Origin: Acidobacteriota bacterium
Lineage (GTDB): Bacteria; Acidobacteriota; UBA6911
Assembly: GCA_965249005.1 (NCBI GenBank)
Contig: CBDFLD010000022.1
Location: 1,040,247-1,104,246 of the forward strand
Reading direction: 5' to 3'
DNA length: 64,000 bases
Part shown: piece by piece, positions 6,885 to 16,655 of the stretch
How positions within the stretch are numbered: position 1 is the first letter of the stretch
Layout: each line of letters begins with the position of its first letter
The notes under the pieces: generated by a model
Databases searched by the model: none
Seen by the model: only the letters and a program-made list of their open reading frames with translations
What the model was told of the DNA's origin: nothing
Translations under genes and position numbers: made by a program

Positions 6885-8273
6885 CTATTTCAGACCTGAA
6901 GGGAGGCGCGGGGACGAGAGTAGTTTCTTGAACTCCTCCCATCGAACCTCGGGTTCGTCCTCTGTACCTCCGCGGGCCTCGATATAGCTACGAACAAGAT
7001 CCTGGCCCAGGTTGTAGTTGATGACATAACTTCGATACTGGTCTATGAAGCGGACACGCTGGCGCGAACGTTCCAGTGACATCAGAGAGTAGCGCTGGAG
7101 CCATCGCGACGCCTCTTCACGGTCGATCTCTCCATCGAGGTAGCGACGTGCCGCCTCGTTGCCGGCGTAGTTCAGCTTTGCTGCCAACTCCGCCACTCGG
7201 TAATACGTTTCGGCGTGCGCGGGGTCGAGTCCCGCCAGAGGAAACAGCACGTCACGCTCGAAGCGAACGCGGTCTTCACCAGGAAAGGCGACGTCGATTC
7301 CGAAATTGGCGGAGCCTTCCGCGATCAGCGATTGTGGGCTGAAGAGAGGGTAGACAGTGAACTCGACCCAATCGCGACGGCGTACCAGGGCATCCTCGAT
7401 CAGGAGATGGTAGACGTGGTGTCCAGGATAACCTTCATGACAGGCCAGATCGATGGCCCGGTCGATGTAGATGGGAAAGTCGGTGTTTACTTGAATCAGA
7501 CTGTGACCGTTGCCCTTGTACCAGTTGTAGCCACTCCAGGATTTATCGGTGACGTATTCGACGACGAAGCTCTCGTTTTCGGGAAGCTTGATGTGCTGCG
7601 TGGTCCGGCGCCGCGCTTCCTTGATGGCGGCACGAAAAACTGAATCCAGCTTTTCCGGAGGAACAACAAAAGCCTTTTTGAAATCGAGGTAACGTTGAGG
7701 GACGGGATTGTCCCCAGGCAAGAGAGATTCCAGCTCGTCGAGGAGGTTCTGAAAATGGCTTTCCGGATAGCTGGGTGGAATGACGTCATAGACGAGAGCG
7801 GCCTCCTCGTCGAAGGTCATCTTCTTTCCGGAGAGAAAGTCGACCCGCGCCGCCATCGACTGCAGCTGTTTCAAAAGATATTGGTGACGGAGCTGCGTCA
7901 GGCCCTCTTCGGATGAGACGTCCAGCACACTCAACCGCTCGATATGGCGCGTCGCTTGCTGGTGCACGCTCTCGAGTGAGGGCTTGTCTCTTCGAACCGC
8001 CTCCCGCCACTCCTGTGGCCCGTAGTAAGCGTCTACATAGTCTTGGTCGTACTCACCTACCGAGAGGGCGAGCTTGACATAGGATTCAGCGGATTCAGAG
8101 ATCAAATCGTGCATGATTGTGGCGGCTGGGACCGTACCAGGCTGCTGCGATGAAGGGTTAGGTTGACAGGCGACGATCCAGAATGCAAGTACCGAGACCG
8201 GCAAGAGGCGCAAGGATCGTGATCCGGAATCGAGTAAACGCGGCGGCGACAACATCTGTAATGCCCACTGCAT
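6885..8273 (-). CDS. putative lipoprotein zinc metalloprotein (DUF885-like)
   Basis: Lipobox-like IVAC; HEGYPGHH motif with downstream AEG; start uncertain. Confidence 0.7.
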   Translation of the reverse strand: MQWALQMLSPPRLLDSGSRSLRLLPVSVLAFWIVACQPNPSSQQPGTVPAATIMHDLISESAESYVKLALSVGEYDQDYVDAYYGPQEWREAVRRDKPSLESVHQQATRHIERLSVLDVSSEEGLTQLRHQYLLKQLQSMAARVDFLSGKKMTFDEEAALVYDVIPPSYPESHFQNLLDELESLLPGDNPVPQRYLDFKKAFVVPPEKLDSVFRAAIKEARRRTTQHIKLPENESFVVEYVTDKSWSGYNWYKGNGHSLIQVNTDFPIYIDRAIDLACHEGYPGHHVYHLLIEDALVRRRDWVEFTVYPLFSPQSLIAEGSANFGIDVAFPGEDRVRFERDVLFPLAGLDPAHAETYYRVAELAAKLNYAGNEAARRYLDGEIDREEASRWLQRYSLMSLERSRQRVRFIDQYRSYVINYNLGQDLVRSYIEARGGTEDEPEVRWEEFKKLLSSPRLPSGLK

Positions 8274-8460
8274 CGTAAAAGACCTAAACGATGTTCCAAA
8301 TGAAGCCCAATCTCAAGTGCAAACTGCTCCTGTTCAAGGTTTCGGCGTCCTTCTTACGCCCGCGCTCTTGCTGATGAAAGGTTGCGGGTTCGCAGTCTAA
8401 CGGTGGTGCCCTACCGGTCCGATAAGAGAGGAAAGCAAAGCTGATTGGAAGTCAAAGTTC

Positions 8461-8910
8461 ATGAATGATTGGTCGAGCTGGCCTCATTGTCGTCGCAAAA
8501 CTTTCCTCGCCGGTGCTTTCCTGGTGTTCTGTTCCGCCCCGGGCCTGCTGCTTTACGCCGGAGACGATATGAGCTCGGTGCCGCGAATCAGTGTCGAGGA
8601 GCTCAGCAAGCTCATGACCACCGGTGGAGTCCTGCTGGTCGATGTTCGTGACGAGCCTTATTATGATCGCGGTCACATTCCTGGAGCTGTTTCGCTCCCC
8701 ATTGGGGTCTTTGCAGAGCGAGCGCTCGAGTTGCGGGATACCAAAAAACCTATCGTAACCTACTGCAGTTGACCCACCGAGAACTCGAGTGCCCGTGCGG
8801 CACTGGTACTGAATGCCCTCGGCGTTACCGATGTCCGGGCCCTGAAGGGTGGCTTGAAGCAGTGGCAGCGGCAGGGCCGCCCCGTGGTCGGAAAGACAAG
8901 AGACGAGTAA
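8461..8910 (+). CDS. rhodanese-like domain protein, probable selenoprotein (UGA at 8770-8772 read as Sec)
   Basis: Reading through the TGA gives YCS-U-PTENSSARAALVLNALGVTDVRALKGGLKQW, which completes the rhodanese fold; a SECIS-like hairpin follows the UGA. Confidence 0.82.
8776..8807 (+). promoter_or_regulatory. putative bacterial SECIS element
   Basis: Stem AGTGCC/GGCACT (8788-8804) with loop CGTGC starting 21 nt after the UGA; G in the second loop position; possible ACC/GGT lower stem. Confidence 0.72.
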
Positions 8911-9092
8911 ACCGTACGCGTCTCTCGCCGAGAGAGACGTCTAAAAGCGGATCGTCAGTGATGTTGTAGCCCAGTTCGTCGGTCTGTCCCAGCGTCAACC
9001 TAGGCTTATCCGTCAACCATATGGTGAAGCTCGGGGGTGGTGATCACGGCCCGATTAGGGCTGTCTTTTCACAAACCTGTCCACGGCGCTGT

Positions 9093-11489
9093 TCACTGCC
9101 CGTTTGCGTTGCCTATGCGCAAGTCTGCACGCCACTGTTCGTAGTGTGGCATCAGTTCATTGGCACGCGAGAACGGGAGTATTTTTATGCGGGCAGACAG
9201 TTTGTATATCTTGTCTTTCTTGGCGTCCGCGATGTGCCAGACGAAGCCCCGATGGCCCCCGGGGTTGCCCGGCGACGGTCCCGAGGCAAGGAGATCTATC
9301 GGGGCGCCGGGTTGGAACATGAAAACCAGGATTGCATCTTCAATACGGCTGTAGAAAAGGGGGTGCCGGTATCTGTGCCGCCTCTCGGCCGCGCTGGCTT
9401 GGGAGTGCACAAGGATCTCCTCGTTATCCGGAAGCTCCAGGCCGGTGAAACCAACTGGGCTGAAAAAGGTGAACTGAGGCGAGGCCTTCTCATTGAGATA
9501 CGCTTTGGCGCTCAGGGATAGGTCTCCGTAGCCCTCTTCGAGCGGTGTGATTTCCAGGGTCCAGTCCAGAGAGTCCTCCGCGGCGACGCTGTAATTCATC
9601 GTGATGCCGAGATAGGGTCCCTTGACCGAACCTCTCTGGAACTGCCAGTGCTCGATGCGGGCCTCACGGTCGCTCAGTTTTCTCACACCATACGGCAAAA
9701 CCCTCCAGAGCGGCTCGAATACCATTCCCTTGGTGCTGTCCAGCACATTTCCGGAGAAATGCGGCGAGCTAAGACGCCACACGCCCGGATGGTTGGAGAG
9801 ACCGTCCGACGCCTTGCCATGAGGGACGGAATCGCCCACGCGAGCCGATAGGTTCCCGGCCCCGATATCGACATGGTGTTTGGCCCACATGAACCGATAG
9901 GGGCCGGAGTACATGGATATGTCATTAGGGTTGCTTGCCGACATGCCGTATCCGCCGATATCTTGCGGTAGGGCAACCCCACTCTTGTTCAAGACTGCGT
10001 AAAGCCTGAGCATGGCCAGCGGCAGGCTCTGATTCACACGACTCGACGGAAACTCATTTGGCCAGTCCACGAAGAATTCGCCCGTAAAGAAATGGCTCAG
10101 CGCGTCATCAGCAACACCTCGCGCTGCCTCCAGGTACCACCCGTCACCCTCCGCTTCGTAAAGATCGAGTAATCCTTGAATCAGACAAGCGGCCATGTCG
10201 GATTTCAGAAATTCACTGGCGAGCCCGGACAGGGTCGCCGGCTTGTCCCTTTCAAGCTCGAGGATGTCCAGGCACTTTTCCGCAGTTTCCTTCAGTCGCT
10301 CGTCGCTCGTCAGCTTGTAGCCTCGGGCGTAGGCAAGAAACAGCAGAGGAAGCCCTTTGTTCCCGTGGAATCTCATCGGGTAAGAAAGATAGTCCTTGGT
10401 TGGTACAACACGCACCTGAGAAAACTTGATTCTCTCACCCGTATCGGTGCGGCGCATTTCGTAGAAGGCCCTGCTCTTCTCCTCGTAGCAATACTTGGCG
10501 TAGGCGACCAGATCCTGCAAAGCCCACTGGCGGAATCTGGCGGCTGAATCCCCTGAAAGCGTCTCAGCCAAATACAACTGACCCAGAGCATAGGAATCGC
10601 TTCGTCGGCCATAGTTTATGAGCAAGTTTCGGACGGTTACGCCAAGATGTCCAAGACTGAGCCGATGGGCCTCCCGGTTGAATGCGGGGTCATGAGCGTC
10701 GAGAATCGCAGGTGCAAGTCCGGTCTTCGGGTCTTTGAGCCTGACGAACCGTTCCGCCAGCCCGACGGCCCTATCCCGCCACACGGGGTCATTTGTCTTG
10801 GAGTATAGGAATCCCGCAGCATAGAACAGGTCCGCGGCGGCAAGGGTAAACGCCAACTCCCCCGGCTTTACCTTACCGCGTGGGCCCGGCCGCTCCATGT
10901 GCGCGTGACGGCCAAACATCATCCACGGGTCGTCCAGGTCCACGTGTGCGTTCCAGTAGCTCTCGATGAATCGCTTGGTGGCCTGGGGATTGACCTCGTA
11001 CAGGAACTCGTAATAGGGAAAATCTTGTTTCAGCTCATGACTGTTGTGAGGGGCAAAACGCGGGGCGTCCGTATTCAGATCCCAATACACGTGGTTACCC
11101 CAGTAGATCAGTCCGGACTTTGCATTCACCATGTTCTTCAAGACGTAGTCGGTGGCTTGGTAAGCCGCCCGGCGGTATTTCTGTTCCCCGGTGAGGGAAG
11201 ACAAACCTACCAATCCTCGCAGCAGGTATTGTTGGAAAGCAAAGTTGCAGATCACATCGCCATTTGCAGCAACAACGGGCGTCTTTGTCTCCACAGCAAT
11301 GCCGTCCACGAAGAGCGGCGTCTTCTTCCCGTAGCCGTCGCGGCCGTATTCCAAAATGTTGTCATAGAACGTCACTACAGAATCTCGGTACTCGCTCGGT
11401 GATGCTGCCCACAAAACATCTTGGCAGCAAACCGGGCTACAGAATACAACGAGACTCCAATACAACAGTCTGCGGTTGGCACGTACCAT
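9093..11489 (-). CDS. secreted PL2-like (periplasmic pectate lyase) protein with C-terminal extension
   Basis: YWGNH, HELKQDFPYYE and RFIESYWNAHV match PL2 conserved blocks; AGGAGG RBS before ATG 11489; signal-like N-terminus. Confidence 0.7.
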   Translation of the reverse strand: MVRANRRLLYWSLVVFCSPVCCQDVLWAASPSEYRDSVVTFYDNILEYGRDGYGKKTPLFVDGIAVETKTPVVAANGDVICNFAFQQYLLRGLVGLSSLTGEQKYRRAAYQATDYVLKNMVNAKSGLIYWGNHVYWDLNTDAPRFAPHNSHELKQDFPYYEFLYEVNPQATKRFIESYWNAHVDLDDPWMMFGRHAHMERPGPRGKVKPGELAFTLAAADLFYAAGFLYSKTNDPVWRDRAVGLAERFVRLKDPKTGLAPAILDAHDPAFNREAHRLSLGHLGVTVRNLLINYGRRSDSYALGQLYLAETLSGDSAARFRQWALQDLVAYAKYCYEEKSRAFYEMRRTDTGERIKFSQVRVVPTKDYLSYPMRFHGNKGLPLLFLAYARGYKLTSDERLKETAEKCLDILELERDKPATLSGLASEFLKSDMAACLIQGLLDLYEAEGDGWYLEAARGVADDALSHFFTGEFFVDWPNEFPSSRVNQSLPLAMLRLYAVLNKSGVALPQDIGGYGMSASNPNDISMYSGPYRFMWAKHHVDIGAGNLSARVGDSVPHGKASDGLSNHPGVWRLSSPHFSGNVLDSTKGMVFEPLWRVLPYGVRKLSDREARIEHWQFQRGSVKGPYLGITMNYSVAAEDSLDWTLEITPLEEGYGDLSLSAKAYLNEKASPQFTFFSPVGFTGLELPDNEEILVHSQASAAERRHRYRHPLFYSRIEDAILVFMFQPGAPIDLLASGPSPGNPGGHRGFVWHIADAKKDKIYKLSARIKILPFSRANELMPHYEQWRADLRIGNANGQ

Positions 11490-12170: not shown

Positions 12171-15100
12171 ATGAAAGATGCAGCCATGATTCGAGATCGT
12201 GGACTGAATCCCGCAGTCGCGCTTCGGTCTCATCGGCTTGCCGTTATCGTGCTTGTCCTTTCTTGCTTCCCACGGTTCGATGTCTCGTTACTTGGGGCGC
12301 AGTCAGAGTCCCCACCGGATTTCGAGTCGCACATTCTTCCGTTGTTCCGCAAGAACTGTCTGGCCTGTCACGATTCGGAGACCCGGACCGGGGGTCTATC
12401 GCTGGAGACTCGCGAAGCTGTGCTGGAGGGCGGAGAGTCCGGGCCGGTCGTCGTCATGGGAAAACCGGTCGAGAGCTTGCTCCTGAGTCTGGTTTCGTCG
12501 GGCAAGATGCCGGCTGCCGGATCCAAGCTTTCCGAGGACGAGATTGGCCTCATCCAACGTTGGATCGAAACCGGGGCGGGAAGTGAAGACGTGGCTACCG
12601 TGACCGAGCACGAGATCATGGATACGATCATCGGGCCGAAATGCTTCGTCTGCCACGGACGTCGCGTGCAGCAAGCCGGCCTCGACCTGCGCACGCGGGC
12701 GAATCTTCTGGCGGGGGGAAAGTCCGGACCCGCGATCGTGCCGGGCAAGCCGGACGAGAGTCTGATGGTGCGGCGAATCGTTGCGCAAGAAATGCCACCG
12801 CCAAAGCTGCAAGAGCAGTTTTCCGTGCGAGGGTTGACTTCGGATGAGCTGGCCAAGTTGCGTCGCTGGATCGAAACTGGAGCCCCGGCAAACAATGAGG
12901 CTCCCGCGTCCGAAGTGATTCCAGAGACTGATCCGATCGTGACGGCTGCGGACCGCGAGCACTGGTCGTTCCAACCCCCCCGCCGCCCGGTTGTGCCCAG
13001 AGTCGACAACGACGAGCAGTCCGAAAACGCGATCGATGCGTTCTTGCTCGAGAAACTCGAGCAGAAGGGGCTGCGCTTCTCCGTGGAAGCGGAGCGGTCG
13101 ACCCTGATGCGGCGGCTTTACTTCGATCTCGTCGGGTTGCCGCCGTCGCCGGAGGAGATCGACGGCTATCTCTCGGATGATCGGCCCCGGGCATACGAGC
13201 GGCTGGTTGATCGGTTGCTCGAATCGCGGCATCACGGAGAACGCTGGGCGCGTTACTGGCTCGATGCCGCGGGGTATTCGGACTCCGAAGGCGGGGTCTC
13301 CGCCGACAATACGCGGCCCTACACCTACCAGTATCGCGACTATGTGATTCGCTCCCTGAACGCGGACAAGCCGTACGATCGGTTTCTGGTAGAGCAGATC
13401 GCGGGGGACGAGCTTTCGGACTACAGGGCAGCCGAGGAATTCACCACCGAGCAAATCGACCAGCTGGTGGCGACCGGATTCCTTCGTCTGGGACCGGACT
13501 CGACCTATAGTACCGAGCAAAACTTGGTGCCAGAGCGCTTCGATGTGGTGGCCACCGAGATCGAGATTCTCAGTTCGGCCGTCCTGGGTTTGACGATGGG
13601 CTGCGCGCGTTGCCACGACCACAAGTACGATCCATTGCCCCAGCGCGACTATTATCGAATGAGTGCCATTCTGCAAACTGCATTTGACCCGTACGATTGG
13701 CTGTCGCCGAATCTTCGATGCATCGGGGTCGGCGCCAACTGTGACGATGACAACACTCGATACCTCCCGTTCCGGTCCACGGTGGCTCAACGGCGAGTGG
13801 AGGAACACAACGCCCCGATCCAGCAAAAAATCGACGAGCTCAAACAGCTGATGGACGATCTCGCGGCGCCATATCGGGACAACCTCACGGCGCGAAAGCT
13901 CGAGGAGCTACCCGAGGACGTCCGAGAGGACATGCGGGTGGCGCTGGCGACGCCCGCCCAGGAGCGCTCGGAGCTTCAGCGATATCTGGCGAAAAATTTT
14001 GGACCACGGTTGGAGGTGACGCTCAAGGAAATATCCCGGACCTTCGAGGAATTCAGAAAACCGGCGACGGAGCTCGACAAGCAGATTGAAGCCGAAAAGC
14101 AAAGGCTCGAGCCTGAGCCGAGAATTCGTGCCCTCTTTGATATGGGAGGAACGCCGACGTCCAACCGGTTGTTGCGCCGGGGGGAACCCGACAACCCCGG
14201 TCCGCTCGTCAGCCCAGGCGTACCTTCCGTGCTTGCAACCGGACTGTCTCCATACCGGATTGAGAAGCCGCCCTACAGTACGGAAACAAGTGGACGTCGG
14301 CTGGCGCTGGCGCGCTGGCTGACTCAGGCCAACCATCCGCTGACGGCGAGAGTGATGGTCAACCGGATCTGGCAGCATCATTTTGGAACCGCATTGGTCA
14401 GCACGCCGGGAAACTTCGGCCGTCTCGGCACGCCGCCCACGCACCCTCGACTGCTGGACTGGCTGGCAACCGAGTTCGTGCGCGGGGGTTGGAGCATCAA
14501 GGCGATGCACCAGCTCATGGTCACTTCCGCCGCATATCGGCAGAGCTCCAGGGCGACGGCGCAGGCGCAAGCAATGGACCCGGGCAACATTCTGTTCTCC
14601 CGTTTTCCTTTGCGCCGGCTGGACGCCGACGCGCTGCGCGACGCCTTGTTGAAAGTTGCCGGCCGACTCGATACCACGCCCTTTGGCCCGGCGGATGAGT
14701 TGGAGGTGAGCCCCGAAGGAGAAGTCGTCGGCAAGGTTGCGACGAATGGCTACCGCCGAAGCATCTATTTGCTTCAGAGGCGTTCCAAGCCGGTGACCAT
14801 GCTCGAGACGTTCGATGCGCCTTTTCTGATTCCGAACTGTGTCAAACGATCATACTCGACCGTCTCTTCGCAGGCCCTGGTGCTCATGAACGCGGAGCTC
14901 GTCCGGGAGAACGCGCATCATATGGCCGGTCGTATCATCGAGGTGGCCGGAGGAGACCACGAAAAGCAGATCAATCGGCTCTATCGTACGACGTTTGGTC
15001 GCAAGCCGTCGAGGCAAGAGCTTCGAGACGCAGAGGAAACCTTGCGAGCCATGACCAATGAATGGAGAATGCGTCTCGAACAGCAGCGGCCTCCCGAACC

Positions 15101-15185
15101 GGTTCCCATGAAGGCCGTATGGCTCGCACTCGCGTCCCTGTCACACACGTTTCTCAACGCGGCTGAGTTTCTTTATCTTGATTGA
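12171..15185 (+). CDS. planctomycete-type cytochrome c / DUF1549 / DUF1553 protein
   Basis: Signal peptide; three CxxCH motifs (CLACH, CFVCH, CARCHDHKYDP); HWSFQP, GERWARYWLD and TARVMVNRIWQHHFG. Confidence 0.92.
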   Translation: MKDAAMIRDRGLNPAVALRSHRLAVIVLVLSCFPRFDVSLLGAQSESPPDFESHILPLFRKNCLACHDSETRTGGLSLETREAVLEGGESGPVVVMGKPVESLLLSLVSSGKMPAAGSKLSEDEIGLIQRWIETGAGSEDVATVTEHEIMDTIIGPKCFVCHGRRVQQAGLDLRTRANLLAGGKSGPAIVPGKPDESLMVRRIVAQEMPPPKLQEQFSVRGLTSDELAKLRRWIETGAPANNEAPASEVIPETDPIVTAADREHWSFQPPRRPVVPRVDNDEQSENAIDAFLLEKLEQKGLRFSVEAERSTLMRRLYFDLVGLPPSPEEIDGYLSDDRPRAYERLVDRLLESRHHGERWARYWLDAAGYSDSEGGVSADNTRPYTYQYRDYVIRSLNADKPYDRFLVEQIAGDELSDYRAAEEFTTEQIDQLVATGFLRLGPDSTYSTEQNLVPERFDVVATEIEILSSAVLGLTMGCARCHDHKYDPLPQRDYYRMSAILQTAFDPYDWLSPNLRCIGVGANCDDDNTRYLPFRSTVAQRRVEEHNAPIQQKIDELKQLMDDLAAPYRDNLTARKLEELPEDVREDMRVALATPAQERSELQRYLAKNFGPRLEVTLKEISRTFEEFRKPATELDKQIEAEKQRLEPEPRIRALFDMGGTPTSNRLLRRGEPDNPGPLVSPGVPSVLATGLSPYRIEKPPYSTETSGRRLALARWLTQANHPLTARVMVNRIWQHHFGTALVSTPGNFGRLGTPPTHPRLLDWLATEFVRGGWSIKAMHQLMVTSAAYRQSSRATAQAQAMDPGNILFSRFPLRRLDADALRDALLKVAGRLDTTPFGPADELEVSPEGEVVGKVATNGYRRSIYLLQRRSKPVTMLETFDAPFLIPNCVKRSYSTVSSQALVLMNAELVRENAHHMAGRIIEVAGGDHEKQINRLYRTTFGRKPSRQELRDAEETLRAMTNEWRMRLEQQRPPEPVPMKAVWLALASLSHTFLNAAEFLYLD

Positions 15186-15200
15186 GGGAGCGACATTTTC

Positions 15201-16655
15201 ATGAAACGCCACAATCCGGCAGGTGATATCGAGCGAACCCTGAGCCGTAGAAGTTTTTTCTCGAGCGTGTCGCACGGCCTGAAGGGCGCCGCAATCGCAT
15301 CCCTGCTGGGAAACGATTATCCCGCGCTGGCGAGTCCGTCCCGCCGCGTCTACGACCTGGGTGAGCGGGCAGCACATTTCGAGCCCAGGGCGAAATCGGT
15401 CATCCAGTTGTTCATGAATGGCGGGCCGAGCCAGGTTGACCTGTTCGATCCCAAGCCGGCACTCGAGAAATACGCTGGGCAGCCTCCGGGCCGGGATATG
15501 GCCAGCGAGGTGCGCACCGTTCGTGAAGCCGGCGGACTCATGCCTTCGCCCTTCAAGTTCGCCAAGCATGGGGAATCGGGCATCGAGCTCTCGGAGATCC
15601 TGCCGCACCTGGCCCAGCGCGTCGACGACATCGCACTCATTCGCTCGATGTGGTCTCCCCACATGGCCCACGAGGCGTCGCTGTTTTTGATGCACACTGG
15701 AAGGATTTTCCCCGGCCGGCCGACGTTGGGTGCCTGGGTTGTCTACGGTCTCGGTAGCGAGAATCAAAACCTGCCGGCCTTTGTCGTTCTGGACGATCCC
15801 AAGGGATTACCGATCAACCATATTCAGAATTGGCAAGCGGGCTACCTGCCGGCGCTGTACCAGGGGACGCGGGTCCGTTCGGAGGGATCTCCGCTACTCA
15901 ACCTCAAACCGAACGAAGAATGGCCCGAACCGATCGTCGAGCTTTCACGCTCGCTGCTCCGCCGAATGGACCAAAGGCACCTCGACGAGCGTCCCGGGCA
16001 CGACGACCTCGAAGCGCGCATCAGCGGCTATGAGCTGGCGGCCCGAATGCAGTTGGCCGCCTCGGATGCGATGGACCTTTCGAAGGAAGATGCGGCAACC
16101 AGAGCGATGTACGGGCTCAACGACGAGCTCACGGCCTCCTATGGTCGTCGTTGTTTACTTGCGCGCCGGTTGGTCGAACGTGGGGTCCGTATGGTGCAGA
16201 TCTACATCGAGACGCAGATCTGGGACAACCACCGTGAAATCGACAAGGGCCTGCGTTATTGCTGCGGAAAGACGGATCCACCCATCGGGGCGCTGCTCAC
16301 CGACCTGAAGCGCACGGGGCTGCTCGACAGCACGCTCGTGGTCTGGGGCGGCGAGTTCGGCCGTCTACCCATCGCACAGAAACCCGGTGGCGTCGACGTG
16401 GGACGGGATCATGGCCCTTCGGGTTTCAGTGTCTGGATGGCAGGAGGCGGCATCAAGGGTGGAACGGTTTACGGAGCCACCGACGAGATTGGCTACAAAG
16501 CAGTGGAGAATCCGGTCAGCGTTCACGATTTCCACGCCACGATCCTGCACCAGCTCGGTCTGGACCACCGCAAGCTGGTATTTGGCCGCGAAGGCCGCAG
16601 CGAACGCATCACCGACGAATTCCCCGCCCGCGTCATCAAAGAAATCCTTGCCTAA
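15201..16655 (+). CDS. DUF1501-domain protein
   Basis: SRRSFF; GGPSQVDLFDPKP, WDNH, GGEFGRLP, GRDH. Confidence 0.92.
   Translation: MKRHNPAGDIERTLSRRSFFSSVSHGLKGAAIASLLGNDYPALASPSRRVYDLGERAAHFEPRAKSVIQLFMNGGPSQVDLFDPKPALEKYAGQPPGRDMASEVRTVREAGGLMPSPFKFAKHGESGIELSEILPHLAQRVDDIALIRSMWSPHMAHEASLFLMHTGRIFPGRPTLGAWVVYGLGSENQNLPAFVVLDDPKGLPINHIQNWQAGYLPALYQGTRVRSEGSPLLNLKPNEEWPEPIVELSRSLLRRMDQRHLDERPGHDDLEARISGYELAARMQLAASDAMDLSKEDAATRAMYGLNDELTASYGRRCLLARRLVERGVRMVQIYIETQIWDNHREIDKGLRYCCGKTDPPIGALLTDLKRTGLLDSTLVVWGGEFGRLPIAQKPGGVDVGRDHGPSGFSVWMAGGGIKGGTVYGATDEIGYKAVENPVSVHDFHATILHQLGLDHRKLVFGREGRSERITDEFPARVIKEILA

Follow-up and report, generated by a model that had tools for sequence, protein, structure and literature searches.

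A probable selenoprotein among single-domain rhodaneses of Acidobacteriota with predicted export

We found that positions 8461-8910 on the forward strand of a 64,000-nucleotide stretch of an Acidobacteriota genome (here called the window; GenBank assembly GCA_965249005.1, contig CBDFLD010000022.1, positions 1,040,247 to 1,104,246) very probably form an intact gene in which an in-frame UGA is decoded as selenocysteine (Sec); the product is a single-domain rhodanese of 149 residues, predicted to be exported. On this reading its annotation should be that of a 149-residue selenoprotein, not of a 103-residue ORF or a pseudogene, and the same correction is due for dozens of homologues in the phylum. 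The gene adds a clade with predicted export, often of the lipoprotein type, to the rhodanese selenoproteins with a Cys-x-Sec (CxU) loop; knowledge of Sec decoding itself is left unchanged.

The gene and its in-frame TGA

8461..8910, + strand: the whole probable selenoprotein gene, with ATG 8461, Sec codon 8770-8772 and TAA 8908-8910; 149 amino acids
8770..8772, + strand: UGA very probably read as selenocysteine, residue 104; the TGA column is shared with homologues
8590..8871, + strand: rhodanese domain, residues 44-137, from the Pfam match and the modelled secondary structure

The TGA stands in the frame of ATG 8461 directly after ...KPIVTYCS, and is followed by 45 sense codons (PTENSSARAAL...KGGLKQWQRQGRPVVGKTRDE); this same-frame extension, from TGA 8770-8772 to TAA 8908-8910, reads PTENSSARAALVLNALGVTDVRALKGGLKQWQRQGRPVVGKTRDE. 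The product ending at the TGA has 103 residues and the read-through product 149. The original prediction had the ORF track ending at TGA 8770 in mid-loop and the frame going on for 45 codons, and both points were confirmed. The Pfam family PF00581 (Rhodanese) matches the read-through protein with 73.3 bits, against a gathering threshold of 22.2, over residues 44-137 and profile positions 1-101 of 102; the match crosses residue 104, so that the TGA splits the rhodanese domain.

A sequencing or assembly error, with TGC or TGT as the true codon, would need only a single-base difference, and nothing else was found in its favor. Contigs from two public runs (X1 and X2) span 8300-9081 without a differing letter and read TGA, yet both runs come from one sample, possibly and indeed probably that of the assembly, so that they lend the TGA weak support. 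The TGA is also present in orthologues of other genomes (below), and we consider such an error extremely improbable.

Public RNA runs were looked up for this stretch, and none containing it was found. Over the whole window, Rfam at its gathering thresholds gave no match and a tRNA search found none. A signal scan of 8200-9150 detected no promoter of the sigma-70 type, and the two terminator-like sites that it reported, both within coding sequence, were disregarded.

Homologues and the Sec/Cys column

With the window protein as query, a large protein collection gave 128 matching proteins at E<=0.001 (120 of them listed). We aligned 34 of them with the query, a biased sample made up of about the ten best, a few further full-length proteins and all the short ones. 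Within this sample 20 of the 34 database homologues end exactly at ...KPIVTYC[AS], just before the Sec column, and the other 14 go on with Cys (YC[SA]CP[SAH]E), the latter in agreement with the earlier statement that related rhodaneses have YCxCPxExSSA loops. Short ends at ..TYC[AS] set against Cys continuations are the pattern that gene callers make from Sec genes. No public names are on record for the truncated homologues.

The single window protein found no relative in a genome contig collection. Six-frame searches that read through stops were run on the window's genome and on 60 relatives. The six best foreign matches, from these 60 relatives, each contain one in-frame TGA; all have the form (I/V)(I/V)TYC[SG]-U-xxE-x-[ST]SA.. 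and N-termini resembling signal peptides. Among the resulting seven Sec forms, window protein included, E107, S110, A111, L115, G121, G130, G131 and W135 are invariant, and protein conservation thus goes on 3′ of the UGA, as does the PF00581 match.

A profile of these seven (A3) was run against 401 genomes drawn from across the phylum, with E<=1e-22 as the limit. By hand count it matched 85 times, in 70 genomes; 60 of the matches contain one TGA, 22 contain no stop and 3 have TAG only. TGA-type rhodaneses occur in 54 of the 401 sampled genomes, in many families. Thirty loci were retrieved, 23 of them TGA-type (two duplicating earlier loci), and in 23 of 23 the TGA is at the same column (TYC-x-U-xxE). 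A pattern scan then covered 58 loci; 19 without a pattern match were left out, and 11 of these were re-examined with a looser pattern. The same-column totals are 30 distinct TGA-form and 16 Cys-form loci. The proposed check of Cys/TGA pairing at the residue-104 column thus came out in favor of Sec, the TGA forms sharing one column in which the others have Cys.

The Cys-type homologues (P0002-P0040; L061, L064, L069 and others) have the same length, predicted signal peptide and loop, with Cys replacing Sec, and among the matches listed reach up to 58% identity to the window protein. They differ in having TGC or TGT for TGA and in a downstream hairpin that is mostly degraded. Some genomes carry tandem copies: two loci (L077, L078) each have two TGA-type genes, another (L071) has a TGA-type beside a Cys-type gene, and tandem duplicates also occur in G367:C19, G400:C5 and G187:C5.

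The gene could alternatively be a pseudogene, arisen by nonsense mutation of a Cys-type rhodanese gene and with its downstream frame decaying. Under table 11 the ORF does end at 8772, and close full-length homologues have TGC or TGT, from which TGA is one base away. However, decay does not fit a same-column TGA in 60 of the 85 matches, spread over 54 genomes and many families, nor the conservation of downstream residues such as E107, G130 and G131; hairpin covariation at synonymous sites and the Sec machinery of the genome, both described below, also stand against it. We regard a pseudogene as very improbable.

The SECIS-type hairpin

8788..8804, + strand: SECIS-type hairpin, 6 bp AGUGCC/GGCACU, loop CGUGC with G8795 and U8796

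The arms AGTGCC (8788-8793) and GGCACT (8799-8804) enclose the loop CGTGC (8794-8798); the outer seventh pair of the relatives is a G-G mismatch here (8787/8805), leaving 6 bp. The 6 bp hairpin with loop CGTGC had been placed 21 nt downstream of the TGA. The hairpin stands, while its stem lies at 15 nt and the 21 nt applies to the loop. PMC1088965 describes bacterial elements of this type as stem-loops placed directly 3′ of the UGA, their small apical loop including a G; the 6-bp stem and 5-nt loop CGUGC of the window fit this description.

Taken alone, the window hairpin does not exceed what chance can give: folding of the 61 nt that start at the TGA yields -19.2 kcal/mol (z = -1.64), a value matched by 11 of 200 shuffles. 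Its significance comes from recurrence in the same register in all 30 TGA-type homologues, with covariation. The spacing 3′ of the UGA is equal in all homologues, so that the hairpin can be scored in register, taken as nt +17 to +35 from the U of UGA with 7 pairs and a 5-nt loop:

28 TGA forms of the first scan: at least 6/7 pairs in 28, 7/7 in 19; mean 6.7 pairs; mean MFE -12.5 kcal/mol (30-nt window)
Two further TGA forms found with the looser pattern: at least 6/7 pairs in 2, 7/7 in 1
14 Cys forms: at least 6/7 pairs in 4, 7/7 in 1 (L069); mean 4.4 pairs; mean MFE -7.2 kcal/mol (30-nt window)

All distinct TGA forms thus have at least 6/7 pairs (30/30), and 20 of the 30 have 7/7. In an alignment of 28 TGA forms (A5), the loops are CGUGC, GGUGC, CGGGC and similar, the second position being G in 28 of 28. 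In the same alignment the share of paired cells is 95.4%, compared with 84.3% in column shuffles, and none of 500 shuffles reaches 95.4%, although the sequences are related and not mutually independent; in slid registers at most 56% of cells pair. Both-sided changes occur in 4 of the 7 pairs (18 cells). The outer pair, at third codon positions, alternates between G-C (14) and C-G (10), and a Ser codon switch from AGC to UCC is accompanied by GCU to GGU on the opposite arm. One pair is C-G in 26 of the 28, and the window alone has U-A there.

Since the proteins of the Cys forms have on average diverged further, the contrast between the TGA and Cys hairpins is inflated. Most of this caveat is removed by a within-genus pair with 75% protein identity, in which the G120 gene has TGA and 7/7 pairs whereas the G092 gene has TGC and 5/7, and four substitutions cluster in its 5′ arm and loop. 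This pair and the tandem pair in L071 are natural Sec/Cys pairs for studying Sec retention. The expectation that the hairpin would be conserved only in TGA forms was largely borne out: all TGA forms keep it and most Cys forms have lost it, 4 of these 14 reaching 6 pairs. One of the four, the TGC gene L069 (G185:C3), forms all seven pairs in register (CGCCGCC cgggt GGCGGTG), which may reflect a recent switch from Sec to Cys or chance in GC-rich coding sequence.

Sec machinery and the genetic code

The genome was examined for selA, selB, selC and selD, as had been suggested, and all are present, each scoring over its curated cut-off:

C6:80963-82321: selA, 552.6 bits
C15:263142-265028: selB, 360.7 bits
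C23:840751-841674: selD, 364.8 bits
C14:163340-163433: tRNA-Sec, anticodon UCA, 73.3 bits

The selD gene (locus L012, G000:C23:840751-841674) has its own in-frame TGA, at nt 1531 (..SCAG-U-ASKL..); SelD being itself of the Sec type, the organism already depends on Sec decoding. A strong hairpin begins at the UGA of selD.

Across the phylum SelB scores over cut-off in 296 of the 401 genomes. Of the 54 genomes that contain a TGA-type rhodanese, 52 have SelB and all 54 have SelB or SelA; the two SelB exceptions (one 84% complete, the other in 470 contigs) have SelA at 541 and 545 bits. The unpublished genomes G046, G083 and G201 enter only these 401-genome tallies.

An altered code with TGA as a sense codon was excluded, because TGA is the commonest stop of long frames: frames of at least 500 codons in this genome end in 951 TGA, 614 TAG and 306 TAA. 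In the window, TGA ends 4 of 11 checked ORFs (10 supported by Pfam, plus a 462-aa neighbor without a match). The central claim of the original prediction, that this UGA encodes Sec, is thus supported by the Cys/TGA column, the hairpin and the sel genes.

Protein fold and active-site loop

8764..8781, + strand: active-site loop Cys102-Ser-Sec104-Pro-Thr-Glu107, between strand 98-101 and helix 108-119, from a 41-sequence alignment and DSSP of the model

An AlphaFold2 model from the 41-row alignment has a mean pLDDT of 87, and of 96-98 over residues 41-140, with a central strand at 98-101, a helix at 108-119, a strand at 125-128 and a helix at 131-137. By Foldseek the model falls with the single-domain rhodaneses, superposing on about 106 residues of 3tp9 (rmsd 1.5 A) and of 3nhv (1.8 A); a complete rhodanese fold is predicted only when the UGA is read through.

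The model also bears on whether the UGA mostly terminates, the 103-residue product being the main or a regulated form and Sec insertion being minor or selenium-dependent. Sec insertion in bacteria competes with release factor 2, and the window hairpin is one pair shorter than that of 20 of the 30 TGA-type homologues. Against this, the 103-residue product would lack helix 108-119, strand 125-128 and helix 131-137, so that its stability appears unlikely from the model, and both the downstream part and the hairpin are under purifying selection, which indicates that the full-length form matters. Predominant termination is improbable, and we return to the full-length Sec protein.

Y101, C102 and C/U104 do not vary among the 41 aligned sequences, at least 90% of which have E107; the loop has this conserved Glu and no conserved basic residue. 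The evidence is divided on which residue corresponds to the canonical catalytic Cys. When aligned with HMMER to 6mxv domain 2 or to 3tp9, the protein has Sec104 opposite that Cys (C-x-x-G-x-R-S); the alignment to 3nhv (BH2092) instead favors Cys102, as does the model, in which Cys102 stands at the strand end, the place of the canonical Cys. Whichever is canonical, Cys102 and Sec104 are both within the active-site loop.

The closest folds are 3nhv/3o3w (BH2092 of Bacillus halodurans) and the 3tp9 domain, with 32-33% identity and an rmsd of 1.5-1.8 A across some 106 residues. The longer loop is also present in BH2092 (YCWGPACNG, compared with YCSUPTENS in the window protein), but these structures have neither Sec nor a CxC/CxU pair at these positions, and according to the entry titles their functions are not characterized. 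GlpE and PspE of Escherichia coli are thiosulfate sulfurtransferases with a six-residue catalytic loop containing basic residues. The window protein has their fold and size, yet scores far below their cut-offs (GlpE 41.9 bits vs. 102; PspE 21.3 bits vs. 102); by the alignments its loop is two residues longer than in canonical rhodaneses, contains Glu107 and no conserved basic residue, and has Sec in addition.

N-terminus and export

8461..8559, + strand: predicted signal peptide, residues 1-33, with basic RRK at 11-13, a hydrophobic stretch at about 14-31 and possible cleavage after YAG

Export was judged by eye and from hydropathy, which rises to 2.29 over residues 14-24; YAG/DD follows the hydrophobic stretch. 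Orthologues have typical signal peptides (..AVYAQQ, ..PAFAQQ; A-x-A/Q sites) and many have a lipobox (..LVACNS, ..LTACNS), so that the hydrophobic N-terminus pointed out in the original prediction is common to the group. A lipoprotein-type signal, ..[AS]-[AGC]-C-N-[SAD].., is found in L063, L066, L067, L070, L073, L074, L084 and L064 and in the second copies of L077 and L078; the window copy has none. The window protein is likely exported by way of its predicted signal peptide. PspE of E. coli is an exported protein (PMC10215317).

Known CxU rhodanese selenoproteins

Rhodanese selenoproteins of the CxU kind have been known since 2005, so that a further one is no surprise to the specialist. In the parts available, a 2026 review lists a rhodanese-like form 3 (NF041203, CxU) (PMC13188914) and a 2022 review a "COG0607 form 2, CxU" (PMC9312934), both crediting the CxU form to Zhang and Gladyshev (2005, Bioinformatics 21:2580); a family of rhodanese-related sulfurtransferase selenoproteins from the Sargasso Sea also appears in the accessible text of PMC1088965. 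Like the window protein, form 3 consists of one rhodanese domain, with Cys-x-Sec where the central strand ends. The motif differs, being LYCAU in form 3 (from the model name) and TYC[SAT]U in the window's clade.

The best NCBIfam model for the window protein is NF041203 (rhodanese_LYCAU, "rhodanese-related (seleno)protein"), with 71.6 bits (64.6 bits when the genome was searched) and a match spanning positions 16-124 of the 126 in the profile. The cut-off is 115, which places the window protein outside the NF041203 equivalog as curated. The same model was best for 26 of the 27 relatives scanned, at 63-90 bits, and none reaches 115; the locus L081 gave no NF041203 match at E<=1e-15. The window protein is of the same kind as form 3, in a sister clade with TYC[SAT]U outside curated NF041203. 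That annotation pipelines miss the gene, as had been claimed, fits with this unreached cut-off and with the 20 of 34 aligned homologues that stop at ..TYC[AS].

The same CxU loop and TGA column occur in DedA/VTT-rhodanese fusions (L045, L048, L049, L051, L052, L054, L055), with (I/L)VLYCT-U-PNEA. These proteins, of about 330-380 residues, have an N-terminal membrane VTT domain (PF09335) and a C-terminal rhodanese; NF041203 is again the best match, at 75-79 bits, under cut-off. L050 is a Cys twin of the fusions. The window's genome has no such fusion at E<=1e-8.

The available parts of PMC13188914 and PMC9312934 contain no statement on export or lipoprotein signals for form 3 (CxU), and we found no literature on an exported CxU rhodanese selenoprotein. 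Geobacter ExtH, as described in the part available of PMC5877670, is another rhodanese-like protein and of no help on the exported CxU form.

Proposed mechanism and role

The hairpin-driven and SelB-dependent insertion of Sec at UGA has its paradigm in E. coli fdhF. By analogy, the hairpin at 8788-8804 would recruit SelB with Sec-tRNA(Sec) to a ribosome paused at the UGA. The full-length protein would then leave the cytoplasm by its N-terminal signal peptide, giving a mature domain of about 116 residues with the Cys102-x-Sec104 pair and Glu107 between the central strand and the next helix. Our best guess is that Sec104 would be the nucleophile, carrying sulfane sulfur or reacting with an oxidant, and that Cys102 may resolve it through a selenenylsulfide. 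The protein would be an extracytoplasmic redox or sulfur-relay protein, not a thiosulfate:cyanide sulfurtransferase of the GlpE/PspE type. We put forward this specific chemistry of Cys102 and Sec104 tentatively, giving it at most somewhat less than an even chance.

More broadly, the TYC-x-U proteins may be a distinct extracytoplasmic clade, soluble or lipid-anchored, missed by NF041203 and truncated by gene callers, with Cys-x-Sec as a periplasmic selenenylsulfide redox center or a sulfur/selenium-relay center; as a whole this proposal is possible but rather doubtful. If true, such a periplasmic center would be a function not described for any rhodanese selenoprotein.

Gene neighborhood

The gene stands alone between two genes of the opposite strand, encoding a 462-aa protein and a pectate-lyase-like protein. 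The 462-residue upstream neighbor (window 6885-8273, - strand) begins with a signal-like segment, and Pfam gave no match to it at E<=1e-5. No functional link was found with the window neighbors (the pectate-lyase-like protein, the 462-aa protein and an aldehyde dehydrogenase). When ORFs within about 1.5 kb were clustered over 39 loci, nothing recurred around the Sec forms but the gene itself and its antisense shadow.

In one genus (g63), all three sampled genomes have the rhodanese gene close to selB, 0.5-3 kb away and in the same orientation (G385:C6:15924-18605; G092:C40:8845-12168; G120:C23:1168907-1174099). This adjacency, which hints at a role in selenium handling, is absent from the window's genome and from the other genomes compared by eye. 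Elsewhere in the window, 54-2397 and 12171-16655 hold two pairs of DUF1553/PSCyt (planctomycete-type cytochrome c) and DUF1501 genes.
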